From positions 10,135,432 through 10,199,431 of the forward strand of contig CAJINV010000001.1 of NCBI GenBank assembly GCA_905178155.1: DNA of 64,000 bases. The letters are read 5' to 3'. Source of the DNA: Amoebophrya sp. A120. Lineage: Eukaryota > Protista > Dinoflagellata. This document shows positions 15,001 to 51,038 of this stretch, piece after piece; the first letter of the stretch is position 1, and each line of letters begins with the position of its first letter. A model generated the notes under the pieces. The model had not been told where the DNA came from, ran no database searches, and saw only the letters and a program-made list of their open reading frames with translations. The translations under genes and the position numbers were made by a program.

Positions 15001-18000
15001 GCCGTGCGCACACTGGACGGCCGAGGAATGTCCGAACGGGGCACGATCGAAGACGTCGTAGACCCACTGCACGTCAGTTTTAGCTCCGATGCGCCGCTGT
15101 CTGGCGGACTGGGTCTACCCTCGCGTCTGGACGTCGCCGCATTTCCGTTTCACGCCTCGAATCTCGAGACTGTCGGATCTGCCGCGGGCCTTACCGACGC
15201 GCACCAGGCTCTGCTCGAGCGCGATCGGCGCACGCGCCGCCAGCTGCAGGAGCAAGCCGACCTGGAGCGCGCGTTGCAGAAATCTTCCTTGCGCGCTATG
15301 GAAAGGGTGTTCGCTGACGTCTTGCAAAGTGCGTCGCTCTACGAGGTGCGCGGGCAGCAGCGCATCATCGACATGGCCTTTTCCGCACTGAAGGACCTGG
15401 CCGCAGCGTCGGTGCGCGTGGAAGAGCCGCGCTTGCCCGGCCTGCCTCTTGAAACCGAGCAAGCGTTTGCGTTTGCCATGGAGCGAAGCGGTCGAGACGC
15501 CCTCGCCGCACTGAAAGTGATCCAGCCGGCGCCCGAAGACAAACAACCGGGATCCGCACGGCCGCCAGTTGTTCTTCCAGGCGATAGCTCCGCTGCATCT
15601 TCTGGTGTTCCAGTGGAAGGCACAACACCTTATCCGAGCGGCGCAGCTGGGAGTCACATGCTGCCAGCACCAGCTGTGCCCGAGGACCAAAGAGCTCCGG
15701 CGGGAGAGGACCATCGGCCATTGATTGCAAAACCAAAATCGACGTATGCGAGCGCATCTGGAACAACGGATCCAACAGGTCTTGCCAGCGTGCCGGAGGC
15801 CACGGAGCTTTCATCCACAGCGCCCGGGGAGCAGGACACGCTACTATCCGACACAGACGCCGAGCAGACCGTGGAGATTGTTTTCGACTACCTTAGCCTC
15901 GCGGATGAAGCGTCGGCAGATTGGTTCGCCTCGCAACCACTGGAGTGGCAGCGCCGACTGTCGGCCAGCAGCTTCGATGCGAACGTGATAGAGCCGGCCG
16001 CGGCAGAGTATTTGCACATGGAACGGCACGGGGAGGACGGTGGCGCAGTGCATGCGCCGTACCGTACGGACTCTGATTTCGAAAATGCTGCGACGACAGT
16101 GCAGCTCGAGCCTGTGGCGCCGGAGAATGTGATCAAGAACCTGATGATCGCAATCTCGCCCAAAAGTTCGGTGCTCAGCAAGAATGCGCCGGAATTGAAG
16201 TTGGAGGCAAAGCAAGTGCAGTTTACCGCGCATCTTCGGGAGAGCGTACGGAAGGAGCTCGAATCGGAAGAAAAGAGGAAAACCGAGTGCGGTCCAGCAG
16301 CAGGGCATGCTCCGGGGGCGGGTAAGCGCACTGCAGGCAAAGAGAGCTCCGGCTCCTCTGCCCAAATCGAGGACCGCACGCTCTGCTGGGTGCTTTCCGT
16401 TCTGCGGGAGGATAACTACCCAAACCCGCTCTTCTGGCGGAAAAACAGCGCGGGTGCAACACCGGTAGCCACAGAGGCCGAAGCGCACGTTATTGCCGCT
16501 GAGAAGATGGGGCTCCAGCTGCCCTCGCAAACTCGCCGTCGGTTCCGGGTGATGTCGGCTGCGGCTGTTTTGTCCAGTGATTACGGGGACGCCGTGACCC
16601 TGCAGAAAGATTCGTTGGAAGCTTTTCACGGCTACGTCCTGCAGCGTGCGGGCGAAGTGTACTTGTCGCTGGCTAACCCGGTGGCGGACGAGGAAAACCA
16701 GGAACCGGTGAGAAACCCGGTCCTGCAGGAAATCATTCGAAACTACCTCCCGCCAGTCTGGTGGACGCCGGAAGACCAGGCCAACATGCCGAGAGACGCA
16801 GAGATCAATACCCCGGAGCAATTGGACGCCTACCGCCGCCCCGTAGACCAAACCTTGGTGGATTTCGTTGAGACCTACTTTGTTGCGGCGCACAAAGACC
16901 TCCGCCCCGGGCGAGTATCCCCGGCAACCGGGGGTCGGCGTGCGACAATCGTGAAGGCTGTGTCAACTACAACCTCGTCGCAGCAGGAACGTGCAGAGGT
17001 GACGTTGAGCGATTTCGCACTGGATTTTCTGAAAACCGAGCTCTTTGCTTTATCGAATGTTGGCGATGGGAAGGAGAGTGCAACCGGGCGGTATGCCCAA
17101 GACGTTGGCCCCACTGTTGAATTGCTGGTGGACCGGTTCCTCGAAGCCGGCTTTAGCCTGGCAGACGTCAATCACGTTCTGCGAGAAGTGGTGCAACTGA
17201 TGACTGCAACCAGCGAAGACCAGCACATTGCGGTGCAGCAAACTTCTGAGCTCGTCAATGGAGATATCGTTTTTGGCTCAGCGTACAGCCCGACCGCGTT
17301 CACGTACTCGGCTTCTACAAAAAAGCATTTTGCGGCGCCAGCCTTGGCGGAAATCATGTCCTTGTTGAAATTGCGCATCGAGCTGGTCGTTGGGAAGGGC
17401 GTGTTTGTCGGTCAAAAAGATCTCGATAGGCAGTATGAGGACCGACGCTCTGTTGCAGCACTTCAGACACGACAGCCCCTGTTTGCGAAGCGCGACTGGT
17501 ACGGTGTCCTACGCCACATCGAAGTTGCGGGGAATTTGCTAGTCGTGCCAGAACAGCCCGAAGAAAACTCGTCCGCTGAGGTCATGTTTCTGAAGCCTTG
17601 GATTGCGGCGTATTATTCTATCGGCGAAGCGCGGACGCCTCCTGGCGTGGCGTTCGTGTGGACGCAACTGGCACAAAAGCTTACGCTATCGCAGCTTCCG
17701 CTCAGCCACATTCGGTCGCTTTTGGATCGATTGCAACACACGGGGGACCGACTAGCCGCAATCAAAACCAGCTACCACTTGCAACTTCCAAGCATCCGCG
17801 AGATGCAGCAGAAGTTCCTGCAAAAACACATCAACACAGCCTCGTCCGCACACTTGAACGCGTTTTCCGGGGGCGATGGTTTCTCAGGCGCCTATTCCCA
17901 CATGACCGGCTCCAACCTTTTCCGGGCGGGGGAAAAAATGGCCCTCGACGCGCAGCGGGATCGGACCATTTTTCGCGAGCAGCTCGCTCCGGCCTACGCT

Positions 18001-21000
18001 CAGGTACAGCGGCACTTGCCGTATCTGGCCGGGACAGTTGGTAGGGGCAACGGGTTGGAAGACTTGATTCAGCTCGTCCACTTTCTCCTGCAGCACGAAG
18101 ACCAACTGTACAACTCCGCGGACATGGAACTTGTCGTCCTGCGGGAGCAGATCGTGCTTGGTGACTTGCTTGCCCCAGTCGGCATCACTGCGGCCTCGGA
18201 CGATAGCGGTGATTTCTCTGGCAGCACGACGCAACAGGAGGACTACACGTCCGACGATGACGAGGCAAAAAGCGCCAAGGGGAAAACCGTTCGTAATTTC
18301 GCTGGGGAGGACGTGTTGCAAAGTCTTCCGACACTGGAAGCGTGTTTGCGGAAATTGCAGACCTTAGTTTTGGCGCGAGAGACTTTGCAGCTGAAAGACA
18401 AAGCCGTGCTGCTCCGCATGAACCGGCACATGGCCGACCTGCTGCGCCGCGCCCGCAAACCCGGAAAGAAAGAGAATGTCGCTTCCGCCACCGTCGCGCA
18501 CCAGTCGTCTGCACAGACGAGCAAACCTCCCGACCGTGCTACCGAGCTCCAGCAGGGACTGACAACCGCGAAAGACCTGGTGCAGGGCGGACACCAGCGC
18601 TTAGACATTGCGATCAGTCGTTTCGACCCTCTCTCGATGCGCATGCTGCTGCAGCCGCAATTTCAAACGGTCATCGAGTCCGGCTCCTCCGCAAGCGGAC
18701 CCAGCAACCAGGTCCAGGGTGCGTTCGCGCAGGTGCAGCATGCGCTGGGAGATTTGCTGGACCAGCATGGCCAGCAATTCAGTGCGGTCCGCCAGGTGGC
18801 GCGCCGGCAGCTCGGCGCGGAGCTTCGGCGGCAAACCGCACAGTGGTACAACCGACTGAAGCACGCAGCCGCGACCGAAGTCCCCAACGTGTACCAGCAG
18901 GCGCAGGAGGGCGAGACGAGGAAATCAACGAACAGGTTTTCTCTTGACGAGGGGGACGTGGCGGTCGCTGCAAGTGGCTCCTCGAGCTCGTCGCCCGACA
19001 GTAGCGTCGAGGGCTCGGGGCTTGCCTCCCCGCCGCAAGGCCCCGCGCAGTCCTCGCCCGCGGGCAGCAGCGACATGGAAGTAGACGGTCAGGGCGGGGG
19101 GCTGCAACAGGGGAAGCAACCGCGGCCCAAATCTTTCACGTTTGGCCGTGCCTCAACATCCGACGGCGCAGTTTCTGGGGAGAAAGATCCCGCTGCCTTC
19201 GATGAGGGTGGGGGCGGTAGCGCTGCCGCGCCGCCGGCCCGACAGCGCGAAGTCGTGTTTGCCACGCTTGAGCCGATCGTGCAAAGTGTGTACTTGGAGA
19301 TTTTGGCAATGCTGAACCAGTTCGGAGTGCCGCCAAAGGACTTCTGGCGCAGCCTGCATGGGAAGTGCAACGCCTGTGGGTCGTCGAGCGCCGAGGCCGA
19401 GCAAGACGAACACCAGGGCGCGGCAGCGGGTGCGTCCTCGCATGAGCTCCAGCCAGTCTCAGCGGGGTTACCAATGCCAGTCGTGGAAGAAAGTCCTGAG
19501 AACTCCGAGGAGGAGAAGCGGCAGGAGGAGCAGGACATGCGGAAAATTGCAAGTCTGCGTCAGATTCTACAGAAGGTGGCGGCCGACGTACACGAGAATC
19601 GCGATTCGGACATTGACCGGGTCATCCGCGACCGTCTCCTATCCGAGATCACCGATTTTTTTGCCCGCAAGCTGGCGACCTACTGGCTGACCTTGCGCAG
19701 CTTTGAGCCGCACGTGAGCATCACGACCGATCCAAAGGCGTGGTTCCAGTCTTTGTTGAAGGTGTACCCACGCAGAAGCCGGGCGGAGATCCGTCGCGAG
19801 GAGGCAGAGCACTTTTTTCTGTTGCAGAACAAAGAGGAGGGCGTTGCGCGCCAGGCGGGAACCGAGCTCTTGCGGTGCACGTTCGAACAGATTCAGCACA
19901 AGGTGTTCATCTCTCCAAAATCGCCGGATAGCAGTTTGCGGGACATCCTTCAGGACTACCGGGAGCGCAACCCGCCGCAGCAAAAGATCCGTGCCAAGGC
20001 GGGCGCCGTGGAAAAATTGAACGCGCAGATGTTGAACCAGGATGGCAGTCCCATCGGCGAGTTCTGGACCAGTCTGTCCAAACCCGTCCAAGACGTCGAA
20101 CTTTTGGACGGCGTAGCGCACCTGGCGGCTTTCATGGGCTCGGCCTTCGACACAGGCACGGAAAATGCAAAAGCCGCACGTGGACTCTCGCAGCGGTTGC
20201 TGAATCAAATGGAAAGCGGTCGCCATGTCCGCAGTCTGAATCTCCTACTGTTCCCCTCTCCGAGTCCGACCACAAAGAGCCTCGCGGGTGTTGGCCCTAG
20301 TGCTTCTTCTCCCGTACAAGAACATCGAGCGAGTTCGAGGGCCTACCCCACCGACACTGTGGCACCTGGATCTGTTCCACCTGTACCACAGCCGCAGCGT
20401 GGTGCATACGTCCCCGGTCCTGCCGCAGGCTCCGTGGCGGAACAGCCGTCGAAAAGTTATCTTCCTGGATCATCTGCCCCCGCACAGCAGCCATCGAGGC
20501 AATATCTTCCTGGATCTGCGTCCGCGCAGCAGCCGCCCAGGAGCTATCTTCCCGGTTCAGCAGGGCAGAAGGCGCCGAAGAGCAGCTACCTACCTGGTTC
20601 TGTCGTTGCAGCCTCGTCTCAACCCTACCTGCCGGATTCTGCTTCAGTACCTCCGCCACCTTACGGCAGCGCAGGGATTTCTGCTGTGGTGCCATTACCG
20701 AAGCCGGCTGCAGTGGGCGCACCCACCGCTCGCACTACAGTTGTTCGCGATACAGGAGTGCTGGAGGAAGAGGATCCGGAGATGGAAAAAGGTCTTGAAG
20801 ATCTAGAGCGCCCAGCCAACAACGTTCGATTTTACGGGTTCGCGCAGCTGCTGCTCGGCAATGCGGAAGACCATGTACGCAAACAAGCGTGGCAGCAGCT
20901 CTTGGAGCAGCGCCAGCAGCTGCTGGTCGATGCCACGCGTGACAGCATGGGCATCGGGGCCATCGATTGGACGAGTGACACGCTGGTGGACGAGGTCGAA

Positions 21001-24000
21001 CACATGGCGCGGCCGGAACTTCCGTGGCAGAAGGACTCGTACAAGCGCACCCGCATCGAGGGCGAAGTGGAACAGTTTTTCTTCGAGGTCTCGCAAATGC
21101 TGTTTGGCTTCGACGAAGAGTGGGACCGGCGCGCGCACGAAGAGTGGCCCCCGCACGGCGCGAATCTTCTGGCTAGTGTGCAAAACAAGCTGCACGCGGA
21201 CGCGCAGGCCATTCGGGACTACCTGCTGAAAAAGGAAGAGGCTGCATTGATTTGCAGGGACAACTTCACGGGAAATGTCGCAAAGAGGAACGATTGCTAC
21301 CGCAAGATTGTGTCGGAGATGGCGGAGCAAAAGCATCCCCTCGGGGAACGGTGGCGGCGCTTCGTTGCGCAGCAGGTGCGGCAGAAGCCGTTGGGCTTGA
21401 AGCTCATCGGTAACTATCTCTGGAACTACCGCTATATTGCGGCCCGCTTTTTCCTCGGCGAGGGGATTCCAGTGACGGTATCCGATGCGGAAGTGGCCGA
21501 AATTATTCAAGATCAACAGACTGGTCCTGAGTCTGGTATTGCTGCTTCCAGCGCGGCGCAACAGGGCGCATCCCAACAGACGCAGACTAGTGCCGTTGTT
21601 TCGGCCTCGTCTCTCGGGGTTTTCCGTCGGATCGCCACCTGGAACGAGTTCGAAATCCAAAATTGGTCGAGTGACGTGCGCACCCGCATCGCGCCGGTCC
21701 TGCGGCAGATGCTTGCTGAGAATCTGGCAAAACTGGATCTCCTTTTGTCGGAGCATTTTGCGGAGAAACGCACACAGGATGTTGGCGGTGAGAATCCGAA
21801 CGACGCTAACGCCGAAGCTGCGGGAAAGCATTTTATGGATGATGCCATGGAGGGCGAGTACACTTTTGTTCTCACGTCGCTGCAACGCTATGACCCAAAA
21901 ATTGCGGAGGAGAACGAAGTTTGGAAAGCGCTGCTCCCTCCGCACGACTTGAAGTTGTTACAGGAAAGACAGGAGAAGGCAACGCGAGCAAACGATCGGG
22001 ACCAGCGAGAGCCTGACTTCGAAGATATCAGCAAACACCGAAACCACAGGGAGCGCGCGCGCTGGCAGCGTGCGCAGGCCGTCGCCTACCGCGGAATCAG
22101 CACGGCGCTGCGCATGTACGAGAAGCTCACGGTGCAAGCCTTGCAGGTATTCAACATCGGTTTGAAAGAACAGCGTGGCTTCATGCTGCACTATGTTCAA
22201 CTTCTGTCGCTGGTCGAAATCCTTGGCGCCCACTGGGAACTGATGCGACGGGACTTTCTCGGCTTTGCTAGCTATTCCGTTGATCCGCACCTGGAGATCA
22301 AAGACCGGCACACACTACTCGCACTGTACAACGAGCTTACTACTCCTGCGGAACAGGCTACGCGAAGCCACTACGGGAAAAGATCGTCCAAATCACCGGA
22401 ACAGCAAGTAGACCCGTTCGAAGCAACACGCGGCCGCGGGCTGCTGCTGCAGGTGGCAACTGGCGAGGGAAAAACCGAACTGCTTGCCGGTGTGGCCACC
22501 GTGCTCGGCTTGGTGTTTTTGAAGAAGATTGACATCATGACCAGCAGTCAGGTCCTGGCGGTCCGCGATGTGGAAAAGAACCGTAGTCTTTTTGACGCCT
22601 TCGCCTTGCGCACGCGCGACAACACGCACAAAGCCGGGGAGCCGAAGACCGGGGCGCGCAGCTGCTACAAGGAGGGCGAAGTCCTGTTCGGCGATCCCTC
22701 AGATTTCATGTTCGACGCCTTAAAGTCCGAGTGGTACGCCGAGGGCACCACGGGCACCCGCTACGGCGCCAAGTACGCGGCCAACGTCGGGGAGGGCAGC
22801 AAGGACCGCAGTCAATCGGCGCGCGAGTTCTACGAGCAGCACGGTGAGCACTTCCCGAACGCCGCGGAGAAGCTGTACCTGGAAGAAGGCTTCCTCGTGC
22901 TCCCGCGGCTGCGCCGCAAGTTCAAGCTGTACATGGACCACATTTTGAAACAGCAGGTGAATGTCTACACGCACCTCAACGAGGGCCGAGGGCGGGAATT
23001 CAAGCCGCCCGATTCTGCGGAAGTGTATCTGGACAAGCAGGTAAAGTCCGGGGAGTACGTGAATCCGGATGCCGTCCTGTCTGCGCTGGTGCATCTTTCC
23101 CGCGGGCGCGGCGAGACGGGAAAAGGCCGCCGCCGGGAGCTGGACTTGGATCCCTTTCAGAAGGTGGGCCCACCGGGAAGCAAAAAGTTTAACGAAGCGA
23201 GTTTCCAACAGGTCCTCGACGAGCCAGAGAAGATTTTCGAACAGACACAGAAAGACTTCGCCACGGCGCTCGCGCGGAAGCGGGTGGCCGTCGCGATGGG
23301 GCGTTTGGATTTTGGATTTGACAACGTTGCTTTAGCCGACGAAGTGGACATGATGTTGGTGAACGACCTGTCCCGTACCGCCAAAGTCGCGACGCCGTTC
23401 CCGGGTGCGGAGTTTCTAGAGCCGATTTACCACGTGCTGAAACTCGAAATGGACAAGTTTCAGACGCGCGTGCTCCCACTGACCACGACGAACGCCAGCG
23501 GCGCGAGAGTGCGGAAACACATCCTGATGTTCGGCGACGTGCTGCGGCGCTTCCAGGACGAGAAGGACCCTGAGATCGAGGCAATCGAGTTCCAGGCGGT
23601 AGCGAAGCACGGCCAGCCGGTCACCATGCGGGTGCCCGATCTGTTGGCGCAGGTTGCCAAGCCCGGAAATACGGTCGGCGCGGACATGTCACCCGAGCCA
23701 GGAGCGCAGAGCAAGGACAACGCGTTGGAAGAGTACCTGCTCCGCTTTCTGGAGCGCGCGATCGAGTGGCGCTCCGAAGATATCCAGGCCGAGACCGCGG
23801 CGAAAGAGGGGGCGGAGAAACAGGAGCTCGCGCAGCTCCTGGCAAAGTTGCAAGATGTTGGACTCTCCGAGGAAGACCGCATGATGAAGCGATGGTACGA
23901 AGAGCAAGGCTTAGAATGGTCCCCGGGAGTAGATGAGAGCAAGACCGAGGATGACGATGTTGTTGATATGAACGTTGACGAGGATGGAAATACTACTAGA

Positions 24001-26065
24001 AATCCAAGCGGTTCCGGTAGTTCTAAGCCGAAGCTGCGAAAAGTTGCGGTCGAAGACAAAGAGGATTTGTTGTTTCGGAAGACACCCGTCGAGCCTAAAT
24101 TGCTGGACGAGCTTCCCTTCCTAAGCAGCGGTTGGGGACCGGTTCTGGATGCAGAGTTCCGGAAAGAGCAGGAACGCGTTGAGAAAGACCGTTTGCAGGC
24201 GGCGAAAAACCGCGAGAAAGGACTCACATCCGTGCACGGGGCCAGCCTCGTCCGCATTCCGAAGCACTGGGAGCGACATGTTAAAGATACTCTCCCGCGG
24301 CTGGTGAAATCCGCGCTGCTAGCGTATTTCACGTTTCAGGAAAACGTGGACTTCATCATCCAGCACGAGCGCATCAAGCCGGTGTCGGGCGCGACCGGGA
24401 TAACTCAAGAGTCGCTGCACTGGTCGGATGGCATCCATCAAATCCTGGAGGTGATGCACGGGCTGCCGGTCACCCCCGAGTCGCTACCAACAAACTTTCT
24501 GTCCAATTACGCGTTCTTCCGGCGTTATCGCTACGTGTACGGTGTCACGGGCACACTGGGCTCCGCCGCAGTGCGCAACTCCTTGCAGACTTCCTACCAA
24601 CTGCAGAGCCGCATCATGCCCTTCTCGCGTCGGAAGCAGTTCCTCCCCTACGCGCCAGAGTTGATTTCTCCTGAAGTAGTCCGGATGGTCTCGTCGCAGA
24701 GCCGCAACGCCTTGACGGCAGCTTTGCCGGCTCCCGGGGACGACGACGAAGGCTCGCAACAAAAGCACAACGAGGACGAATCGTCGGACGAGCTGGTGAA
24801 GCAGACGCAATTTTCCTCCCAAGAAGCCGAAGCGCTGACCGGACTGCTGACGCAGCGGGACCGGTGGGTCACGCGTGTGGTTAACAATGTGATCACCGAG
24901 CTTCAGCGGGATCGCGGTGTTTTGTGCATCTGTCAGAACATCGAGGCGGCAGAGCTGATCGCGAAGGCGTTGAAGCAGCAGTGGGATCCGGATCGGGTGC
25001 ACGAGTACATGCGGCAGAGTAACGCGGACGTGGGGAGCGGCGAAATGGAGCCCTTCCAGAGGGGCATGGTGATCGTCTCGACGAACCTGGCCGGTCGGGG
25101 CACGGACTACGACACCACGGCGATTGAAAAGTACGGCGGCCTGCACGTGGAGCTCACCTTTCTGGCGGAGTCGCGGGAGGAGGCGCAGGCGCTGGGGCGC
25201 ACCGCGCGACAAGGGAAAAAGGGGACCGGCCGGACCACGGCCATGCTGGGAGGCAGCTTCCAGGAGCAGGACGTGTTTGACGCGAGCGCCGGCACTGACG
25301 CTTTTGTCACTGGTCTGGTGAACAGCCGCCGTGCGCACAACCAGCAACTCGGCGGCGGCGGTGCGAAAAGTACTGCTGAAAGCGACATTCTGTCCAGGGA
25401 CCTCACGACCATTTTCGATGAACTTACTAGCAGCTTGGCTTCGTTGCAAGAAAAATTGCGGAAACTGAATAAATCAGAAGATCAATCAGCGGCCGCTCCG
25501 TTCTCGCTGTACCACGGTGCCCGAGGACTGTTGAGCACGCATGAAGGAACCGCGTTAGTGCCAGCTTCTGCAACTGACCAAAGAACCGCTCCGGATGTTG
25601 TTGGTCTTTCCAGCACCAATGCACTTGCGAATATGGTTGCTGGGTGCGTGCTGACAGCTTACATGGACCACCACCAGAAGAGTGGCTTGCCCAAAAATTC
25701 TCCTGGTGCGCCACAACCTCCAGCGTCTTCTGCTAGTAGAGCAGCTACAACGGCGGTGCTTACAGTGGACCCTTCGGCATTCGGTAAAATCGCAACGATG
25801 AACGAGAACCTATTCCTGTCGCTCGTTTCTCACCAGCGCAAGCAGGAGTTGCACGGGCGAGCGTGCCGGGTGAACCCGAAGAAGTGCCTGGAGCGCCACC
25901 ATGCCCGCGCGGAAGCCAGTGAGAAGCAGCGTTTCGATGATTTCGAGCAGAAGGAGCTGGTGACCATCAAGACGCAGGATCTGCTGTACAGCACGTTTCT
26001 GTTCGAGTATCAGACCTTCCGTTCAAAACTGGCACAAGCCTTCGACCTGAAGTCGAAATCTGGCG
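1..26065 (+). CDS. Giant protein, first exon in window (5'-incomplete); contains OTU-like segment and SecA-like ATPase
   Basis: Frame of ORF 97..26073 is also open from base 1. Its TGA (26071) lies inside the left inverted repeat of an intronic element. Contains SecA motifs QVATGEGKT, DEVD, WSDGIHQ, GVTGT, STNLAGRGTD, GGLHV, GRTARQG. Confidence 0.9.
9460..10170 (+). other. OTU-like (deubiquitinase-fold) segment, probably catalytically inactive, split by insertions
   Basis: KNGLFDAVAHQL resembles the OTU Cys box (DGNCLFRAVAxQL) with Cys replaced by Gly. Downstream LREQV and FDAYLDYVR..AEGDLEALAAAEIYRLPIYLY resemble the OTU YxxxMxxxxxWGxxxExxAxxxxYxxxIxVY block. Recognised by eye. Confidence 0.5.
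20404..20643 (+). repeat. Six degenerate (S/Q/A/P)Y(L/V)P(G/D)(S/P) peptide repeats in a P/S/Q-rich linker
   Basis: AYVPGP, SYLPGS, QYLPGS, SYLPGS, SYLPGS, PYLPDS in the translation; DNA tatcttcctggatc recurs. Confidence 0.8.
22170..25240 (+). other. SecA-like SF2 ATPase domain embedded in the giant protein
   Basis: Ordered SecA motifs: HYVQLL, QVATGEGKT (Walker A, ~22450), IMTSSQVLAVRD, FGDPSDFMFDALK, ADEVDMMLV (~23335), ENVDFII..TG..HWSDGIHQILEVMHGL, FFRRYRYVYGVTGT, GVLCICQNIE, VIVSTNLAGRGTD, GGLHV, QALGRTARQGKKG. Confidence 0.92.
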
Positions 26066-26387
26066 TATTGTGAGGAAAAATCCCCCCTCCCCATACCAAA
26101 CCGGGACACTTCTGAAAATTTGTGATGCAGATTTGAGACCACAAATCGTCGCTGTATTGCATGAAGGCAAGTCTACAGGCTCCGCCACATTCTACAGGCG
26201 GTTTGTCATGCTGTTGCTCCTACAGCGTAGACGTCAGCCATGCTAAGTGCCTAGGCCAAAACTTGTCTACTCAGGCCTGATCTGGGCCTGCAGTCCTCGC
26301 CAACAAGACAAATCTGATCTGTGGCCTCAAATACAGCATCACAAATTTCGTTTTCGATATGGGGAGGGGGGATTTTTCCTTACGATA
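26066..26387. mobile_element. TIR introner / MITE-like non-canonical intron, family A copy 1
   Basis: TIR tattgtgaggaaaaatcccccctccccata / tatggggaggggggatttttccttacgata. Direct repeat tggcg at 26061-26065 and 26388-26392. Removing 327 nt fuses the two giant ORFs in frame (KSKSG|GAQAG). Second copy at 62928-63254. Confidence 0.93.
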
Positions 26388-26392
26388 TGGCG

Positions 26393-29300
26393 GAGCGCAA
26401 GCTGGACACTATTTCCAGAAGGCCGTCAAGGGGCTCGCGGGCGCCGGCGTTGGGGGACTCCTCGGGTTCGGGGTCCTCGCGATGGTTCTTGGAATCGCTG
26501 CCGCCCCCTTTGCGGTAGCCGGCGCAATGACTGCGGCCGCCGGCTCGGCGATTTTCGGCATCGCTGTCGCAGGCGGTGTCGCAGCCGGTGCGTACGGGGC
26601 GTACTACGGATCCACGCAGTTGCACAGCACCGACCCGACCGAGAAGATTCGCGAGTTTAACACGCTGCAGGCCATCGCGGAGCGCTGGGCCCTGTTCCTG
26701 GACCGCTCGCGGGGCATCTTGCAGGACGCTATCAGCGCCGCCGAATTTCGCGGGGAGCTGGTCAACGAGCGTGTCGCGCAGGACGAGGCGCTGAAGCGGT
26801 ACGAGCAATGGCTGCAGGAGCTGAAGTGGGACTTCGAGGGCAAACCAGAGCGGCCCTCCGAGCTCGAGAAGGCGAGCGAGCTGGAAAAGTTCCGCGGCAA
26901 GGCGCTGCTCGGTCACGTGCGCGTCCCGGCGGACAGTACACGGCAAAACAACGGCGCGCTGTTTCACTACTTGGCCGCGCAGAGTTCTTCCGCATTGTTC
27001 GACGAGGAACTTCTACAGCAGCTGAAGCCAATCAACGTGGAGGACACGCAGGCAGGCCTGGTGATCGCCGGCCAGAGCGTCGTGCCGGTGCAGGGCAATA
27101 ATCCGGACCATCCCGTGCACAAAAGACATGTGACAACCGAAATTACGTTGCCCGATAAGGTGGTGTACGGCCGACGGGCGGACTTTTCGGAATTTCTGGG
27201 CATGCGCGCGATCACGAACCCGTTCTACCACACGCAAATCGGCATGCTGTGTCTCGACGCGTACCGAAATGACCCTTCGTTTACCCTGACCAGGAATCTG
27301 TGGTCCTGGATGATCTGGGACTACTACAAGCTGCCCATGCGCCACTTCGAAATGGCGATTTGGCTGGACCCCGTGTTTGCGGGGCCGGCCTACATGGGGC
27401 AAGCGTGGTGGGCCGCACAGAAGGGGAAACACGACTCCAAATCGGACCTAAAGCTCACCCTCGAGCGCGCCAGTTTCGGCATTCAGAAAGAAGTGGAGAT
27501 GCGCGAATTCCTCATCCAGGTGACGCAAGGCGCGATCGACCGCAAGTGGGAGCAAACGAGTCCCCGCCCCGCGCAACAAGGAGAAACAACGCGCAACAAG
27601 ATGACAAACGATCCACTTGCTGCGCAGTTGACCACGGCCGAAGCTGCGCACGCGGGGCTGGAAAGTCTAAAGCGGAAGCAGGCGGTCACCAGAGCGTATC
27701 TCGACGCTATTGACAGCAACATCCGAGAGATCGAGGAGACGGAGCGCCTGCTCGACATAACGGCCCACCGTCCCGTGGAACCAGATAGCGCTGCTCACGT
27801 TCTCGCCGTCGTCGATCATTGGGAGGTGCCGCGCGTGCTGAAAGACTGGGGCGAGAAAGATAAAACGTGGAACGAACATGCGGGATTGCAGGAACTCGGA
27901 TCACTCGGCGACTCGCGCACAAAATCCGTCTTCGGGAAAACATTTGTCGAACGGGAAGACGAACCGATTCCCGGGGGCGCACAACCAGAGCAACAGGCAA
28001 GCAAGGGTGTTCTGGGCGGTATCGCCTCTTTCTTGGGTTTGTCTGGCTCAACTGCAGCCGGAACAGCATCAACAACCCAGGGTCACGCGGGGACGATGGT
28101 CAATGCACCGCAAAAACGCTATTTGCAGGAGAATGAATTTCAGAAACACACCGCTCTTCCCAGATCCGCGGCAGACATGCAGCTGAGCGGTCGCCCTAAC
28201 GTCGGTCGGAAGAAGTTGTTTGACCTGCGCGCACGCGGCTTCACCACCTACGAGGACGGCGGGATGACGTGGGACCAGGCAGAAACTGCGCTGACCCAGT
28301 GGCAGAACAACGCGGTATACACGCCCACCCAGGGAACGATTCCGACGGTCGTTGTGGAGCCGGAGTTTTCGGACTTCAATGACTTCAGTTCTCTGCTGCG
28401 TGGGGACCACGCCCGCGGTGCAGGGGACCGCAGCCAGGTCCAGGACCTGGGTTTTGAAGAGTTGCGGGCCAAGCTCGCGGAACGGCAGAAGCACGAGAAG
28501 GAATGGGCGGCGAAATGGTTCGGTGGTTGGCGGCGCAACATGCACAATGGCGAGGCGTGGAACAGCATGCATCGCGCCAAACCAAATGAGGTTGACCGGG
28601 CGGTGAAAAGCATCCACATCTCGCACTGGCGGGAAGTGTCCGATATGGCGGTGGCGTACAGTTTTGACCTGGAAGACGAGGACGACAATGACATGCAGGT
28701 TGACGCCGGCCGCGGTTCTGGTACACCCGGGCAGCAGCAGGGCGATGGTTCTTCCCTGCTTCGCACTGGCACGCGGCGCGTGCGGTTCGACGCGACGTTG
28801 GATTTCAGCTCATTTGAAGAGGCTTTTGCTGCGCTCAACAAAAACGCGGAAGAGTGGTCGAGCAAAGCGCACCGGTTCACCGTCGAATTCAACAAGGGGT
28901 CAGAAGGAAGCACTGGAAGCGTTGATGTGAACAGCGTGAACAGCTTTCACTACGACTTGACCTTTGAGCCGGCTGACACGGGCGACTCGGTCCAGGCACT
29001 GCAGCTGCTCGGCATGGCCACGGAGCCGCTTGCCTTCCCCCTTCCCGAGATTTACCGGAGCGAGAAAAACTTCCGGGGCGTGCAGGCGGTCACTACCGAG
29101 CAGGGCGGGTCTTCCGCGACCACTCCCGCTGCGGTGGAGCAGGAAGCACAGAAGCAGCGCGAGCACTTCTGGGAGGAACGGGCGAAGTACGTGAAGAAGC
29201 TGGTGCGCGAAGGTTTGCCGGGTATCGGAAAGATTGACGAGCGGAAGGACTTCGCTTTCGCACCGCCGGGGGGCAAAAACGAGGTGGTGATCCACAACAA

Positions 29301-32300
29301 ATGGAAGCCGCGCGCCGTGGACGTGGAGTTCTCCGTCGTCTCCGATGTAGAATTACAGGCTTTCTTCTTCGATCAAATTGCACAAAAGGTCCTGAAAAAA
29401 GCTGAGGATAGCCAACGCGCGGAGTGGGAAATGTTGTTGAAACAGTTTGCGACTGACGAGCCAACCGAAGAGGATGATGAAAGCGCCGGCGGAGGACACA
29501 CTGGTGAGAGTTTTCTGAGCACCGCAGGAGCAGGACCACGTCAGCCTGCGCTTGAGTCTCTCAGATCAGAGTTGCATCAGCGCTGGCTGGTGAGTAAGGG
29601 CATTTTGCCGTCCGCGCATCGTGTTTTTGCTCTTGAGACGGTAACGGACTTCATCAAAAGAGCGTGGAGTCAAACGGAAATGGAGCAGGCGTTCAACCAG
29701 GCCAGAGCTGCGGTAGAAGCGTCTTTGTTTCATCACGAGGTAGTTGCCGGTGCTAGTTCTTCTACGCATATCCCAACTGCCTGGCGCCCGCGCATTCGCT
29801 TTTTGGAGGATCCCGAGCGACTGATCGGAAAGGGTGTACAATCTGACCCGACGGACCGCTTCACCAAATTTCGTGTGTTGGACGGAGCCGAACGCAAGCG
29901 TAGTGTCGACCGCACCGAGTACGAAGACAGGTTGGGATCGGGCGAGGCAGCTGCCCGTCTGCCAGTGGAGTATGAAGAGCATCCACAGGTGCGGATCGAG
30001 GCGTTCCAGTCCTGGGACGGAAAAACCATGTACAAGCGGAAGGAAGTCACGCGGCACGAGAAAAAAACGGCCCTGAAGGCCGGGGAGACCATGGTAAAAC
30101 GTAGGCAGAGTCCTCTACAAACCGATCTGCAGTCCGCCGAGAGTCGTAGCCTCCAAAGTCTGACCGCCTTGCTTGGTGGTCCCAGAGCTTTTCAGGATTT
30201 TTACGCGATATTGCTTCTGGACGGAAGTAGAATTAGCAAAGGTAGAACCGAGAACAGCAGCTCCTCCCTTAACGCAGATGAAGCAACTTCGGGCAGCGGA
30301 TTCCAAGCTTTGCGCGAGCTTTGGTCAGCGGAAGTTGACCAGGACCTTGAGCCAGAACTGAGAGCGGTGGAGCTGAAATTTGTTGGTGACAACGCCGATC
30401 CGGCTGCTGATGTGGTGATGGCGCCGGCGGAGGACGAACTACTAAGCGGTCAACAGGAAGACGACGAAGCCGAAGAAGATGAAAACAAATTGGTCGCGTT
30501 GGACCAGCCGGGCGCGACAGTGCCGGTGTCTGATTTGCTTCGAGGCTCTGGCTACGAGTTTGAGCATGGTCTTTACGCAGACATTCAGGCGGAGAAAGAA
30601 GCGCTAGTTGTGGCGGTCCCGCATCAACAGGGCGGCGCGGTCGTTCCAGACGCACAAACCGCGGCACACCCCCAGGAACAAACCAGCGGACTTTCGGAGG
30701 AAGACTTGCGAAAGAAAGAGAAGCAAGAACGCGCACAGCGCAAGCGCGAAGATCTCGCGCTGGCGCGTGCCAAACAGCGGTTCGTGCGACAGTCATTAGA
30801 GGGCCTGCTGTCCGTGCGGAAGGTGAAGAAGAAACTGATCGGACCGGAAGTTGTCGAAGAGGTCGAGGAGCGCTACAACCCCTACGTTCTCTCCTCTTTT
30901 ACGAATTCGAAAGCGAGTGGGGATCACTACCGCATCCGGTTCCAAGGTGTGGACGCCTCCGTAGCGCAGACGCTGATCGCGTTTTTGGGGAAGTCGCTGC
31001 TTGGCGGACCGGAAGACGCCCGGATGCATTTGTACAGCGTTCTCGAGGCTGCGGGCTTGAAGCCGCAGAAGGACGGCAGTTTGCAGGATCCAGAGTTCCT
31101 GCGACCCCTCCGCCGGGATTTGGCCTTGCTGCACGAAAAGCAGGAGCGCGCGCTGCGCCACAGCTGGACGGAGAAGATTCAGTTGCTGGAGCAGGAGCTG
31201 CGCGACGAGGTGCGCAACTCCGCAACGGCGGGGGGCCGTTTCACCGCGCACCACAAAAACCTGTTGCGGCGCCAGGCGGAAATGCAGGAGCACGACTTAG
31301 CGGAGCTCAACGCGGTGCAGGAGCGCGAGCGCGGTGATTTGGACTTGTTGAAGAAGTCCCTACTCGACAAGGTGGTGTCCTACGTGGAGGAGGAGCAGAG
31401 TCAGTCGGTTGACCAGCGTCCCGCGCCGGCCTACATGGACAAGCAGCGCATCTCGATGACCCTGCGGGGCTGCGAACCCGCGCTGGTTGGCTTGCTGCGG
31501 TGGAAGTCCTCAGAAACCACGAAGGAGCGCGAAGTCCTGTTGGGCGACGATGGCCTGTTCGGCGACGACCGCGCACTCGCTCTTGCCTCGGAAAATGGCA
31601 TGGACGCAGAAGACGCAGCTGCGTTGCAAGCCGCACGCGAAGAGGACCACGGCCTGGAAGACGAAGACGGATCTTCATCTCGCTCGGAAGACGCGATGCC
31701 GGGAGACCAGATTATCGCGCCAAGTCGAACGGCGAAGCACCTCAACGCGGACCGCGACCCAACCGCCTTCACGAAGGAGCTCAGCACCGACTTCGCCGAT
31801 CAGAACGACGCGCTGGTGTTTGCCGACCTGCACTTCACAGGCATGCAGTGGGCCGCTGTGGATGGTCCGCAAAGAGACCTGGTGTTGCGCAAGCTACTAC
31901 TGTTCTCGTTAGACTCAGTTTATGAAGAGACCAGTCCCACGGCGGTCGGCGAAGCTAGCCCCCGGTTCTCCGTGGGAAAGCCGGCGAAACCAGATGGGAT
32001 GATAAACATGCTAGCCAGCATGTTTGCCGGGCTGGGTGGAAAAAGTGCTGGCGAAGAAGCTGGCCCTGGCAGTTCGTCTGTTGACCAACCGTCTGTAGTT
32101 CAGAGATCGCGAAGCGAACAAGCGAGACAGAGCTTTCTCGCTTTCCAAGGGGAGGGCGACGCGCAATTCCCCGAGCAGGACGTCGTACTCTCTCCAGCCT
32201 TGCAAGCCGAGGTGATCAAGCTGCTGCCTGCCGAGGCTCAGGAGGCCGCGAGCAGTGATGCCGACGCGGTCGGGCGTGTTTTGCTTCACAATCTTCGGGA

Positions 32301-35300
32301 GCAAGAGAAGCAGCGAAGTTTGGTCATCGAGCGCCCGCAGGCGGTTGATTTAGAGGACAAAGCCCTTTTGCGTGCCTGGCTCCGGAAAAAATTTGCAACT
32401 GATGGAGAGGAAATGAAAATCGAAATGACTGGGAGGTCGAGTCTCCTCAACGTGCCACAGAACGTGGACCCCGCTGTGGTTGCGCAAAAACAACAGGCAG
32501 ACGTGCAGATGTCAGCAACCGGTTCTGAGGGTGATGCCCCTGCTGCGTGGGAAGAGGAGAACAAAAATGGTCTCTGGACGGCACTATGCATGGACGATTT
32601 TCTCTATGCTCCACCGGATCGCTTGTATGTGTACTTCTGGGAACTGAGTTTTACCAAGAAAGCGGAGGAGCGGTCAGGCGAACAAGCCACTGCTGCCAAA
32701 CACGAGTCGAATGATCAGCAGCGCGTTTTGTTCTTCGAGACCGAGGCCGGATTGCGTCGAGCGCTAGAAGAATTCCAAGGAGGTTCTTCCTCGTCCCCGC
32801 AGAAAGCGAGGTCACGAATCCACGCAAGCCGCCTTGTGAAGGTTCTGGAGGACGAAAATCTGACCAGTGTCGCGCAGCTAGACATCGGGATGAAAGAGGC
32901 CTTGCTGACGGACGCGATGTTTCAGCGGCACCGCGAGCGCCAAACCGTGGAGTACGTGGCCATGCTGGAGCAGCAGCACTTTCCGCGAGAGGCCGCGCTC
33001 GAAGCCAAAAAGAGAGCGGCCACCCACCCGGGGATGGACGGATCGAACGTTGCCGTGTTTTTCGACGAAGCGCAAAAAGCAGAAGACGAGGGCTACGGTG
33101 AGGCAAAAGTGAAAAAGATAGAAGCGGCGGCCGCGAAGCACGGGCAAATGGTGGCCGGTGACGAGCGACAGGCCCGGCTCAGTGCCGTCATTTTCGTTTT
33201 GCAGGAGAAGGCCCGGCTGCTCCTGCAGCAAGTGGAGGACAATTTGCAGACCGTCTCCAACGAGGTTGACGCAGCATTGGTCGTCATGAAGAATGAAAGT
33301 GGCCGATCTCTTCGCGGGCTCGTGGGACAAGAACAAGTGCCGGAGCAAGAAGTACATGCTGACTTCGTGCCACCGGCGGAAGCAGGAAGCGCGGGCGGGA
33401 AGAACAGTGGCAATACACCAGCGGAAAGAGGAGCGTCGAGTCTGCAAACTCGTATGGTTCGGTTACAGTCTCGGCTTCGGGCGTCCGCAAGGGAGGCGAC
33501 GGTGCAATACCGCAAGCACCTGCGGACGCAAATTTCCCTAGGGGTTGGTGGGAACAGCCCCGCATTTTCGCTTGCCAAGGTAGAGGCGCACCCGATCCTG
33601 ACCGGAGAGGAGCTCGGCCCCTCGACTGGAACGGCCGAAACCATTGCCGGCTGGTGGGACACGAGCGTCAGACCGTACGCGGATCTGAACCACCTGGAGG
33701 CCGTCCGTGACGTTGTCGTGGACAATTTCCCCTGGACGGACAGGGAGCTAGCGCAGCAGACTGGTGAGCCCTATCCGAACTGCATGAGCGACTTGCGGCA
33801 GCTGCGAGAGAAGTTGTTGCTGCACACCGCTCTGGATGCCAAGGCGCAAGAGGCTGTACACGCGGTGCAGAAGCGGATTCGCGACGAGAAGGAAGCGCAA
33901 GAGCAGCAGCGCATTGAAGCGGAGGAAGCGAAACTACAGGCTGCAAAGGACGCAGCGCAGAACGGAGCTAGTGCAAGCTCGGGACAACAAGATGAACCTG
34001 GTCAGGGGAAGGAAGACGACATCGTCATGGTTGATGCGGCTCCTGATGTGGATGAGTTTGATGTTGAGTCAGAGGATGAGGAGCAACGCGAAACGGACGA
34101 GCTCTACGGTTACCGCGGAGGTCTCCCTGGTGACGATAAAGGCTCCAATGGGAGCAAACCAAAAGAAGACCCAGCGCCGTTCTCCAAAGGCGGTAAGCAA
34201 GGCGGGAAGTCGAAGTTGTCCGGTGCAGCAGGACATGTTTCCTCTGCTGGCCGCTCAACGCGTGCTCCATCTTCCGCTGCGAGTACCTATCTTGCCGACG
34301 ACGACGATGATGACCTCGAGGTATCTTCCGACAACTTAACCGCTGCTTCGGAGGAGGAAAATGAGTTGAGGACCTCACCAACATCGGGACGACCCCAAGC
34401 ACGCGGTTCTCCTGCTAGTGCAGCAAGAGGTCCGGCAGCGGTCGGCACTGCGGGACACCAGCCTGTTATCGTCTTGTCGCTAGCGGGGTTGACGGAGGAG
34501 GCAATCCGAACGGCGGCACTCAAAGGTGAGGCGCATGCGCAGCGGCTGCGCGAGATGCAGCTGCAACTGGCTCGTCGGGGAAGTGGCCTCGGGGCGGGTC
34601 CCAACAAGGAATACGAGGAAGATTCCGAGGCGGGTGAGAACGAAAGCAGCACGGACGGTGGTGAAGAAGAAGAAGTTGACATCAATCAAGTCTGGGAGGA
34701 GGAAGTGGGAAAGTTTGGCGTTCCGAAAGCGTTATACGAGCGAATGAACGCGGAAGAACGGAAAGCGTCCGTTGAGGCGCACACCAACGCGCAACTCGTG
34801 CGAGAAATTTTTGGCAAAGTCTCGCAGCAGTTGGCGACCGCGAAGAGCAGCTCGGTTGACCAAAACAATTACAAATTGCCGAAAAAGACCTTCTTCAGGA
34901 GCCAAATGACAAGCGCGGCCCAAACCGCGGTGGCGAAGACCCAAAAACTAGTCCGGTACCTCCGCTGGGTGGCGCCGGGGGATAAACCAACCTTCACGCT
35001 GCTCTTCCGGGATTTGGAACAACAGGTTCTGCGGGACGTGATTTACCGCTTTTCGTATGGCCGCGGGGCCGTTCACGGCGCGCTGCACGAGGAGAAAGTG
35101 GATCTCAAAGAGGTGTCCTCGCTGAAGTCGCAGTGGCTCGCGAGCGACAACCTCTACGGCGAGGACAGCTCGCGCGCGCGCGGCATGGAGTCGCAGCTGT
35201 TGGAGTCTGGCGTTGTCTCCTCGACCGGCGACGCCAACGCGCGCGCCGCCCTGCAAAAGCACTTAGCGTTGGCCACCAGCAACCAGCCGCTGACTTCGGA

Positions 35301-50829: not shown

Positions 50830-50992
50830 CATGCAGCCGAAGCCTCTCAGTTTGTTATTTTTGTCTGGATGTCATAGTCATTCTCAGCAACGGTTGCTGG
50901 CTTTTTCGCTCGAATTGTTCGTAATAGTATAACAACTTGTTACATCAGAAGATACAGCTTTCGCTTCGCGTTCGCCAGACGAGGCACTAGAT

Positions 50993-51038
<46 letters not shown>
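50993..51038. repeat. (TAAG)11 microsatellite
   Basis: Eleven perfect taag units followed by ta. Confidence 0.97.

Follow-up and report, generated by a model that had tools for sequence, protein, structure and literature searches.

Locus and element

The window (the whole stretch of DNA analysed, 64,000 nt) holds two long open reading frames (ORFs), both in frame 1 and parted by a short inverted-repeat element, here called copy A. The upstream ORF (1..26073) closes on a TGA at 26071-26073 and the downstream ORF opens on an ATG at 26359-26361; as the preliminary description had reported, both the stop and the start fall inside the terminal repeats of copy A. Once 327 nt are deleted, the two read through as a single frame of 13,999 codons closed by a TGA, with 0 internal stops. 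SecA-like domains lie near the end of the upstream exon and a DUF6861 match near the end of the downstream exon, and copy A is the sole element found in the 42 kb of this giant ORF. Elsewhere in the window, the whole of an ORF at 51453-53741 matches, at 100% identity, a 1307-aa protein entered as "unnamed protein product [Amoebophrya sp. A120]", which assigns the DNA to that organism.

Relatives of the last 498 aa of the upstream ORF are only 26-52% identical (proteins of 873-2490 aa), and no homologue of the same region was found among proteins of 4778-15204 aa. For the first 500 aa past copy A, the best match in a library of cluster representatives is 42% identical (405 aa). Neither the downstream ORF nor the upstream ORF from its ATG has an exact entry in the protein collection. 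The features of the giant gene and of copy A are as follows (evidence in parentheses).

1..26064, + strand: upstream giant-gene exon, open at the window start, its end at 26060-26065 by register (ORF, joined ORF, SecA-like domains)
26061..26065, + strand: left target-site duplication copy, TGGCG (sequence)
26065..26391, + strand: predicted copy A intron in the preferred register, GT..GC, 327 nt (two decayed-repeat elements, sense-strand G in 14/22)
26066..26387, + strand: introner element copy A, 322 nt (inverted ends, fold, family, six-frame stops, DNA-contig ends)
26066..26100, + strand: left terminal inverted repeat, holding the in-frame TGA (inverted-repeat match, duplex energy)
26116..26147, + strand: left subterminal inverted blocks (inverted-repeat match)
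26316..26348, + strand: right subterminal inverted blocks (inverted-repeat match)
26353..26387, + strand: right terminal inverted repeat, holding the ATG that opens the second ORF (inverted-repeat match)
26388..26392, + strand: right target-site duplication copy, TGGCG (sequence)
26393..42327, + strand: downstream giant-gene exon, ending in TGA (ORF, joined ORF, DUF6861 match)

Copy A has TAT...ATA ends, with TGGCG immediately outside them on both sides, and lies in the same orientation as the giant gene. Its inverted arms (26059-26100 / 26353-26394; 42 nt, 83% complementary) include terminal inverted repeats of ~35 nt each, which enclose a perfect 22-nt core, GGAAAAATCCCCCCTCCCCATA, at 26074-26095 (+) and 26358-26379 (-); 0 matches to such a core are expected (100 shuffles). 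The left end reads TAT, TGTGAGG, AAAAA and then the C-rich core. Further in are two subterminal inverted blocks, one of 13 nt (26116-26128 / 26336-26348, 100%) and one of 17 nt (26131-26147 / 26316-26332, 88%). The ~30-bp terminal repeats, the further inner block and the TGGCG duplication of the preliminary description are thus all present at the positions it gave. The element is non-coding, with stops in all six frames; those in frame with the giant gene number four, every one TGA. RNA folding, which the preliminary description had proposed as a check, returned a strong hairpin for copy A with 20-nt flanks (minimum free energy, -156.2 kcal/mol; z = -10.2; 0/100 shuffles equal), and the terminal 30/30 duplex alone reached -54.8 kcal/mol (z = -11.6).

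Repeat family and coding context

The 22-nt core recurs in at least 131 stretches on other contigs, where at least 52 full-length copies (305-331 nt) are 69.5-96.9% identical to copy A; with copy A and a sister copy in the window (copy B), the family counts at least 54. Three other copies are 96-97% identical to copy A, which may hint at recent activity. In the DNA run, 2,117 contig pieces pile on copy A (summed depth in bin, 42,501, versus ~23 on the flanks), and loose contig ends at 26064/26065 and 26387/26388 mark the family borders. A 5-nt flanking duplication is exact in 33 of the 39 copies with flanks and matches at 4/5 positions in the other 6, with none lower; an unrelated 5-mer control gave 0/39. 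All 33 exact duplications differ from one another, and there is no target consensus. The label "MITE-like" (miniature inverted-repeat transposable element) given earlier is borne out by this large family with terminal inverted repeats, a fixed 5-bp target-site duplication, small size, no ORF and many copies.

No transposase is encoded within the 64-kb window, no Rfam family matches anywhere in it, and, copy A apart, the retrieved family loci do not overlap it. When the window was scanned crudely for inverted ends of the type TA..TA, 11 pairs appeared (1-9 in shuffles); only the subset that also carries a duplication stands out (3 versus 0-1). In the alignment of the hairpin, compensatory changes occur in 4 of 45 pairs, and the stem is conserved rather than covarying; as a test of a structural role, covariation is neutral.

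Coding context was assessed by codon usage, comparing the best-scoring coding frame to the left and right of each insert. A stop-free-frame test across the junctions gave 15-16/37 at every offset and is powerless in GC-rich DNA, and the codon-usage test was used instead. The frames on either side agree after 5-nt removal in 22/38 copies (p = 1e-8 against a 1/6 chance) and in 0-5/38 for 3, 4, 6 or 7 nt. The family copies lie in coding DNA that needs "element + 5" removed. Among the 22 frame-concordant copies, 11 are sense and 11 antisense; among confident coding calls, the ratio is 6:6.

These frames bear on how the intact 16-kb downstream ORF is to be read. The preliminary description took it to imply precise removal of copy A. 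The ORF is indeed intact, and the argument is weak alone, because the copy A subfamily is young and the downstream ORF might survive intact after a recent disruptive insertion. Copy A would then be unspliced and the gene split or killed, with ORF 1 stopping at TGA 26071 and ORF 2 silent or separate from ATG 26359; both the missing RNA coverage of the giant gene and the single element in its 42 kb fit such a history. We consider it improbable, since family frames are continuous only after removal of element + 5 even though copies have diverged by 20-30%, copy B is absent from RNA (below) and neither ORF by itself is a catalogued protein. The case for removal of copy A stands on the behaviour of its family, not on the intact downstream ORF.

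Elements skipped in RNA-like contigs

Copy B and four other elements of the window are skipped in contigs from runs X8-X10.

49120..49506, + strand: TAT-ended element, 387 nt, repeat GATTG; 392 nt skipped, 49115-49506 (RNA-like contigs, public protein model)
50784..51281, + strand: TAT-ended element, 498 nt, decayed flanks CGAAC / AGTTC; 503 nt skipped, 50783-51285 (RNA-like contigs, public protein model)
61701..61941, + strand: TAC...ATA element, 241 nt, repeat GCTGC; 246 nt skipped, 61695-61940 (RNA-like contigs)
62538..62850, + strand: TAT-ended element, 313 nt, repeat AGCGG / AGCGA; 318 nt skipped, 62533-62850 (same contig that skips copy B)
62928..63254, + strand: sister copy B, 327 nt, 79% identical to copy A, flanks TGTTG at 62923-62927 / 63255-63259, splitting a CorA-like gene (RNA-like contig skip)

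The RNA nature of X8-X10 was a tool's guess; we read them as RNA because they skip GT..AG introns (two ordinary ones) and because their depth is uneven between genes. A 498-nt contig of X8, at depth 6.8, lacks 62923-63254, the 332 nt made up of copy B and a single TGTTG (5 letters can be assigned to either side of the joint), and lacks 62533-62850 as well, giving two joints along one contig. The skipped length equals element + 5 nt in 5/5 window elements, with ends that are not GT-AG, and the public A120 protein P0011 maps onto the same exon blocks as the RNA-like contigs. Joined across copy B, the reading is ...LNRLLTVLTIITAAALPATMISGYAGMNF...; the last exon of this gene scores against the CorA family of Pfam at E = 2.4e-4 and 21 bits, under the cut-off of 27. 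Around copy A itself (23000-29500), hardly any of the sampled words occur in X8-X10 contigs. Raw RNA runs X5-X7 have 0 reads on 19000-33000 (14 kb of the giant gene) and are no test of copy A, and X5 has 0 reads on 44001-64000.

Whole-element folding gave z values of -9.4 for copy A and -11.6 for copy B, versus -0.4 to -3.2 for the other four elements, while terminal pairing was common to all six (z, -4.4 to -11.6). The full-length hairpin is special to the copy A/B family; terminal pairing alone is what the six elements have in common. The GCAAATATGTC-type elements at 49120 and 62538, which have only their termini in common, could not be oriented relative to each other.

A hairpin with direct repeats is a classic setting for template-switch artefacts of reverse transcriptase. 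Apparent removal could arise in that way, and the protein would then require read-through at each of the four TGA codons in frame, or bypass by the ribosome; it fits that all four copy A stops are TGA, and a review, in the passages drawn on here, cites stop codons read as sense in another Amoebophrya strain. The joints argue otherwise: the 50784 element is skipped with only 1 nt shared at its joint and the 62538 element despite an imperfect repeat, and the joined form spans a whole contig with two joints. Copy B, if read through, carries several stops, TAG and TAA among them. TGA read-through was rejected: the giant ORF has 0 internal TGA versus 169 TGG in its 13,999 codons, and itself ends in TGA. 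We regard this combination as exceedingly unlikely.

Loss of a transposon with one duplication copy is also the product expected of precise DNA excision, and the samples behind the DNA runs differ from those behind the RNA-like runs. The element might accordingly be cut from the DNA of transcribing nuclei, like the internal eliminated sequences of ciliates, and not from RNA. Copy A is nevertheless kept in DNA contigs at flank depth, which does not fit programmed elimination: contigs 19000-26088 and 26361-33000 run from exon into copy A with 0 mismatches (depth, 23.6 and 21.9, as on the flanks), and the 8 joints listed for the region in the DNA contigs, where rare forms could hide, include none across an empty site. 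The RNA-like runs contain element sequence, and in the sections drawn on here, Farhat et al. (2021, BMC Biol 19:1, PMC7789003) called the non-canonical introns of A120 from RNA-seq. Excision at the DNA level is very unlikely.

Cut register

Exact removal of 327 nt from copy A allows six registers (TG-TA, GG-AT, GC-TG, CG-GG, GT-GC or TA-CG), of which 0/6 end in AG. The copy B joint admits only TG-TA, GT-AT, TT-TG, TG-TT, GT-TT or TA-TG; neither element has the AG-ended register of a GT/GC-AG introner. The earlier statement that there is "no GT-AG register" holds for exact repeat-bounded removal and fails beyond it. Because 130 in-frame stop-free G[T/C/A]..AG combinations lie within 25900-26560, the sequence of copy A alone leaves room for splicing at nearby cryptic canonical sites, for example GT 26065 with AG 26418 (354 nt), by which the mRNA would lose or keep a few extra codons and would not regain the sequence it had before the insertion. 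The acceptor of this pair is pyrimidine-rich (cactatttccAG), the inverted-repeat/direct-repeat layout occurs in 15% of canonical A120 introns according to the sections of PMC7789003 drawn on here, and A120 families of ~321 bp have mixed gt/ag and non-canonical calls (Gozashti et al., 2025, PMC12130899). Such splicing of copy A is unlikely all the same: copy B has 80 in-frame G[T/C/A]..AG alternatives, none of them the joint seen, yet repeat-bounded removal was observed, and all of the skipped elements lose exactly element + 5 nt.

Two elements with imperfect repeats narrow the register. At 62538 (AGCGG/AGCGA), the exon can keep 0-4 nt of the upstream repeat copy, and at 50784 (CGAAC/AGTTC) it can keep 4-5 nt; since 4 is the only value common to both, we take the register to be 4 nt kept. 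This register, N-TAT ... ATA-NNNN, in which the intron takes in 1 nt ahead of TAT and 4 nt past ATA, fits all six elements and is our best guess. Of 22 copies read on the sense strand, 14 carry G immediately before TAT, 6 carry C, 2 carry A and 0 carry T (codon-position-corrected expectation for G, 8.1; p = 0.0095), and AG stands at the 3' end in 0/22 copies in this register. The register draws on two informative elements and the G enrichment is modest; the latter could instead reflect downstream exons that prefer to begin with G.

Relation to described introns

The preliminary description assigned copy A to the known non-canonical introns of Amoebophrya with inverted and direct repeats, and its architecture fits the A120 "introner elements" in the portions of PMC7789003 used here. 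These report inverted repeats in which an initial TAT is followed by 7 variable nt and a run of three or more A, located 1-5 nt away from the splice sites; direct repeats of 3-5 nt (5 bp in Fig. S19); no transposase and no U1 snRNA found in A120; and, in the legend of Fig. 3, a non-canonical intron border whose position is still unknown. Copy A lies in frame within a 13,999-codon ORF of A120, has inverted repeats of at least 8-20 nt (TAT TGTGAGG AAAAA on the left, with its perfect core) and a 3-5-nt direct repeat over its borders (TGGCG on both sides), and is repeated in the genome. It is a member of the kind described for A120 in 2021, with nothing different in kind: the TAT + 7 nt + A-run, the 5-bp repeat overlapping the borders, the end-to-end hairpin, the missing GT-AG, the lack of coding capacity and the very many copies are alike in the sections compared. 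Absence from mRNA at non-GT-AG borders was likewise seen here in RNA-like contigs, for copy B and the four other elements, and is predicted for copy A. Equal orientations, a single common register and a sense-strand first-base G were not found in the text of PMC7789003 covered.

Also in the A120 genome and of the same length class are the "TIR DNA / Unknown" families fam160, fam183, fam32 and fam68 (319-322 bp; Gozashti et al., 2025, PNAS, dataset sd07), which have long terminal repeats (termTIR ~94-98) and mixed canonical/non-canonical splice calls and are likened to copy A by description only; fam160 and fam183 have an automated target-site duplication of 5, as in the copy A family. The 22-nt core string was not found in the 12 dataset files searched, of 14 (files without consensus sequences). 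The nonconventional introns of euglenids, as far as covered in PMC11282704, resemble copy A in their non-canonical borders, end-joining terminal repeats, duplication-like junction repeats, supposed MITE origin and unexplained excision mechanism; they differ in belonging to an unrelated lineage and in that excision as circular RNA has been shown for them. No register of copy A places CAG/CTG, the euglenid motif, at +4-6 / -8-6. Introners of Micromonas, Aureococcus and Polarella are alike in that a DNA transposon with terminal repeats and target-site duplications makes an intron on insertion, according to the passages used of PMC11282704 and PMC7789003; those introners supply or co-opt GT/GC-AG, whereas the 3' end of the A120 family has no AG. 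The same passages describe MITE-derived non-canonical introns in Fritillaria borealis, with a spliceosome adapted to such ends; those are mostly AG-A(N), unlike the A120 family, with AG at the 3' end in 0/22 copies in the preferred register.

Proposed mechanism

We propose, with a probability of roughly 0.8, that copy A is an A120 copy of a miniature transposon, bounded by terminal inverted repeats and duplicating 5 bp, that is likely cut from pre-mRNA together with one TGGCG (327 nt), restoring the 13,999-codon frame. By analogy with its family, copy A would be excised as its sister elements are. The exact loss would join ...AAATCTGGC to GGAGCGC..., and the mRNA of the giant gene would read ...AAATCTGGCGGAGCGC....

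What sets the borders would be the paired termini of the element rather than a GT-AG pair. Because no consensus marks the target duplication and coding DNA holds copies in both orientations, the symmetric TAT...ATA inverted ends would be the only possible carrier of the signal. With the cuts one base ahead of TAT and four bases past ATA, the intron would start N-TAT (GT in ~2/3 of copies; GT..GC in copy A). The unusual spliceosome of A120, for which Farhat et al. could not find a U1 snRNA, may read N-UAU as a relaxed 5' site, with the 3' cut placed by position. As the machine, the spliceosome is most likely, at somewhat better than even odds when set against a spliceosome-independent nuclease-ligase route. 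More doubtful, if conceivable, is a machine that takes its distances from the paired TAT...ATA ends (1 nt before and 4 nt after the stem) and is blind to orientation and to the sequence of the 3' cut; it would be a structure-guided endonuclease-ligase independent of the spliceosome, possibly releasing a circle. In the Amoebophrya intron and splicing literature, we found no paper that resolves the mechanism of removal, and nothing on it in the passages of a 2026 review.

Significance

For A120, copy A is an ordinary feature: the sections of PMC7789003 cited here report 29,850 repeated introns of such build. Standard gene-finding programs, built around GT-AG, will break up genes like the present one of 14,000 residues. 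To the published picture, the present analysis adds the equal orientations in coding DNA, the removal of element + 5 nt even where the repeat has decayed, the N-TAT ... ATA-NNNN register fitting six elements and the sense-strand enrichment of G at the first intron base. These additions turn the question of the borders and removal of the non-canonical introns of A120 into concrete tests, for which copy A, the sole element found in a 42-kb ORF and a very stable hairpin, is a convenient substrate.

Results

A 322-nt element, copy A, interrupts a giant gene spanning window positions 1-42327 (+), which is open at the window start and at least 13,999 codons long. Its parts are as follows.

1..26073, + strand: ORF 1 of the giant gene, very long, open at the window start, in the same frame as ORF 2
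26066-26387, + strand: copy A, 322 nt, between ORF 1 and ORF 2, with a TAT start and an ATA end
26059-26100 and 26353-26394: inverted arms of copy A, 42 nt, 83% complementary, with a perfect 22-nt core inside
26359..42327, + strand: ORF 2 of the giant gene, very long, in the same frame as ORF 1

Both ends of copy A are directly abutted by TGGCG, two more inverted blocks lie internal to the arms, and the terminal repeats hold the ORF 1 stop (TGA, 26071) and the ORF 2 ATG (26359); the preliminary description of these features was correct in all details. In the window the 22-nt core has four occurrences, forming two inverted pairs (0 expected, 100 shuffles). Copy A has stops in all six frames, and removal of 327 nt leaves a single TGA-terminated ORF of 13,999 codons. 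For exact removal, the six end pairs anticipated in that description recur, none ending in AG, and the RNA fold it called for (copy A with 20-nt flanks) gave a long hairpin (-156.2 kcal/mol, z = -10.2). The giant gene was absent from every run recorded as RNA, and three raw RNA runs placed 0 reads on it.

The giant gene carries a SecA-like ATPase module at ~22438-25215 (SecA_DEAD, E = 2.6e-10; SecA_PP_bind, E = 2.8e-7; P-loop_SecA, E = 9.9e-5 at 22.5 bits, under the cut-off of 27) and, near its C-terminus, a DUF6861 match (~41101-41308). For the 498 residues preceding copy A, stretches of 26-52% identity occur in large proteins with SecA domains, some named from rotifer, fish and Capsaspora, and a hydrophobic Gly/Ala-rich stretch directly follows the junction.

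Copy B (62928-63254, flanked by TGTTG), which splits a CorA-like gene, is 79% identical to copy A. Public metagenome-labelled contigs, scanned with the 22-nt core, contained at least 131 matching stretches and at least 52 full-length copies (305-331 nt; 69.5-96.9% identity to copy A), making at least 54 with A and B. Among the copies listed, the 5-nt duplication was exact in 33 of 39 flanked on both sides and matched at four of five positions in the other six, with none lower (control with unrelated 5-mers, 0/39). All 33 exact duplications differ, with consensus at no position. In a DNA-like run, 2,117 contig pieces map to copy A, and loose ends at 26064/26065 and 26387/26388 mark the same borders. 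The family is a MITE, in line with the MITE-like element of the first description; its target-site duplication is 5 bp long, with no apparent target preference. One locus, L005, holds two full copies (78-398 and 470-793) 72 nt apart, and contig JACKZZ010018566.1 (loci L017, L027, L028 and L029) has at least four core matches inside 18 kb; this clustering is consistent with the literature, in which single A120 genes are reported to contain tens of introners.

The ORF downstream of copy A is intact over 16 kb, as first described; taken there to imply precise removal, it is weak evidence alone, because the three nearest copies (among those listed) are 96-97% identical and copy A might be a recent disruptive insertion. 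The wider family was assessed with a codon-usage score trained on the giant ORF, comparing the best frame left and right of each insert after removal of the element plus k nt. At k = 5, frames were concordant in 22/39, 22/38 and 16/38 copies (flanks of 60, 90 and 120 nt), and at k = 3, 4, 6 or 7 in only 0-5 copies; 22/38 against a chance of 1/6 gives p = 1e-8. Over half of the copies thus lie in a coding frame that is uninterrupted only once the element and 5 nt (modulo 3) are removed, despite the 20-30% divergence of family copies from each other. Of the 22 frame-concordant copies, 11 are in the sense orientation and 11 in the antisense; where the coding call was confident, the split was 6:6.

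Excision from the DNA itself is another rival for copy A. In the DNA-like run, a 46-kb contig covers the upstream exon and the first 23 nt of copy A without mismatch at flank depth (23.6), a second contig, of 16.6 kb, starts 27 nt inside the right end of copy A and extends into the downstream exon, also without mismatch and at flank depth (21.9), and none of the eight joints listed was an empty site. These data argue against DNA-level excision as the main route, though contigs may mask rare forms.

Three contig runs from one sample (X8-X10), whose RNA status is a guess, were aligned to 44001-64000. They behave as RNA, since their depth varies widely from gene to gene and from run to run, and they leave out two ordinary GT..AG introns. 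In X8, a contig of 498 nt (depth 6.8) lacks 62533-62850 and 62923-63254 and continues to 63594; the latter gap corresponds to copy B together with one TGTTG, five letters being assignable to either side. The segments 49115-49506, 50783-51285 and 61695-61940 are skipped by other contigs. Each of the five skipped pieces contains an element that begins TA[T/C], ends ATA and has termini that pair (terminal 30/30 duplex, -22 to -52 kcal/mol; z, -4.4 to -11.3), and in all five the skipped length is the element plus 5 nt. Only two of seven real transcript joints in these 20 kb are GT..AG.

Joining across copy B restores ...LNRLLTVLTIITAAALPATMISGYAGMNF... in the CorA-like gene, whose last exon has a Pfam CorA match of 21 bits (E = 2.4e-4; cut-off 27), a score under the cut-off because the C-terminal piece alone was scored. 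Exon blocks of a public A120 protein (P0011) are bounded by the same joints. Along its whole length, ORF 51453-53741 shows 100% identity to a protein of 1307 aa recorded as 'unnamed protein product [Amoebophrya sp. A120]'. Cryptic canonical splicing at copy A could draw on 130 in-frame options (e.g., 26065..26418); around copy B there are 80 in-frame alternatives of the G[T/C/A]..AG type, and none is the form seen. It is unlikely that apparent removal is a reverse-transcription artefact combined with read-through of the stop: removal occurs also where the repeat has decayed to one shared nucleotide, and the giant ORF has 0 internal TGA versus 169 TGG in its 13,999 codons.

Canonical intron 49553-49833 has paired ends as well (terminal duplex, -29.5 kcal/mol; z = -4.0), and those of the other, 56258-56487, are unpaired (z = -0.3). 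A candidate element of 241 nt at 60112-60352, between ORF 58026-60116 and the next ORF, has ends TATGAGAGTG... and TATGCGAGTG... matching at 16/20 and flanks GCCAA and CCGAA; RNA-like X9 contigs have loose ends at 60352, with no RNA joint listed there.

A duplication without consensus cannot provide a fixed splice signal. Pairing of the outermost 12 bp is strong in one orientation (-13.3 kcal/mol in A and -10.3 in B, G-U wobbles included) and weak in the opposite one (-6.0 and -4.4); as copies show no orientation bias despite this difference, the signal would lie in the 22-bp core or the TAT...ATA termini. Contigs permit 0-4 nt of the upstream repeat in the exon at element 62538 (AGCGG/AGCGA) and 4-5 nt at element 50784 (CGAAC/AGTTC), which, if one register is common to all, places the cut one nucleotide ahead of TAT and four beyond ATA. 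The N-TAT intron start would then be GT in 4/6 window elements and CT in 2/6. The sense-strand base before TAT in the frame-concordant copies is G in 14/22, C in 6, A in 2 and T in 0 (8.1 G expected, codon-position-corrected; p = 0.0095). No such G bias was found in element orientation, and in this register AG closes the intron in 0/22. From these few cases, the copy A intron is predicted as 26065-26391 (GT..GC); the first-base G could equally be a preference for G opening the downstream exon. Whole-element folds (z = -9.4 for A, -11.6 for B, -0.4 to -3.2 for the other four) indicate that a full-length hairpin is not required, and in the family alignment the stem is conserved, not covarying (compensatory changes in 4/45 pairs).

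About 870 nt past the giant-gene stop lies an exact 22-nt dinoflagellate spliced-leader-like string (43198-43219, +), followed by AT, not GT. The 17-nt stretch directly upstream (tgtcatgcgtgactcac, 43183-43199) is found again at 46349-46365, where RNA-like contigs end in a near-copy of the 30 nt at 43153-43182; depth across 46349-46436 reaches 292 (at 46391). The locus may be a multi-copy SL-RNA-gene-like unit or relic.

Discussion

The intron kind is already known, in this same strain. Passages of Farhat 2021 (PMC7789003) report that >60% of A120 introns are non-canonical, with 29,850 repeated introner elements in 1,954 families, bearing inverted repeats at both ends (TAT, 7 variable bases, at least 3 A), set 1-5 nt away from the splice sites, as well as 3-5-nt direct repeats (5 bp in the case shown in Fig. 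S19), which bears out the preliminary description on non-canonical Amoebophrya introners with such repeats. They add that U1 snRNA was not found, that splicing mechanism and exact border are unresolved, and that 15% of canonical A120 introns share the layout, a remark that the paired ends of 49553-49833 fit. With TAT TGTGAGG AAAAA, copy A is, judged by its sequence, a textbook member of this class. By description only, it resembles A120 'TIR DNA' introner families of 319-322 bp (TSD, 5) in the portion consulted of Gozashti 2025 (PMC12130899, dataset sd07). Word searches and passages of the Farhat 2021 text and supplement yielded no orientation balance, common register or first-base G.

A spliceosome-independent, structure-guided route might act here, by analogy with the nonconventional introns of euglenids, for which review passages describe such a route as suspected. 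If removal is real, we put at about 55 to 60% the reading that it would occur at the RNA level by an unusual A120 spliceosome, with a relaxed N-UAU 5' site at the element end and a 3' cut placed by position relative to the paired termini. We favor the spliceosome because of the GT enrichment, the ordinary GT-AG introns in the same transcripts, the shared layout of canonical introns and the precedent of Fritillaria, where review passages describe MITE-derived non-canonical introns processed by the spliceosome. The five TAT-ended elements have at least three unrelated interiors and in common the TAT + 7 nt + AAA-type termini and the 5-nt flank rule, and the analysis suggests one mobilising or excising machinery serving many families.
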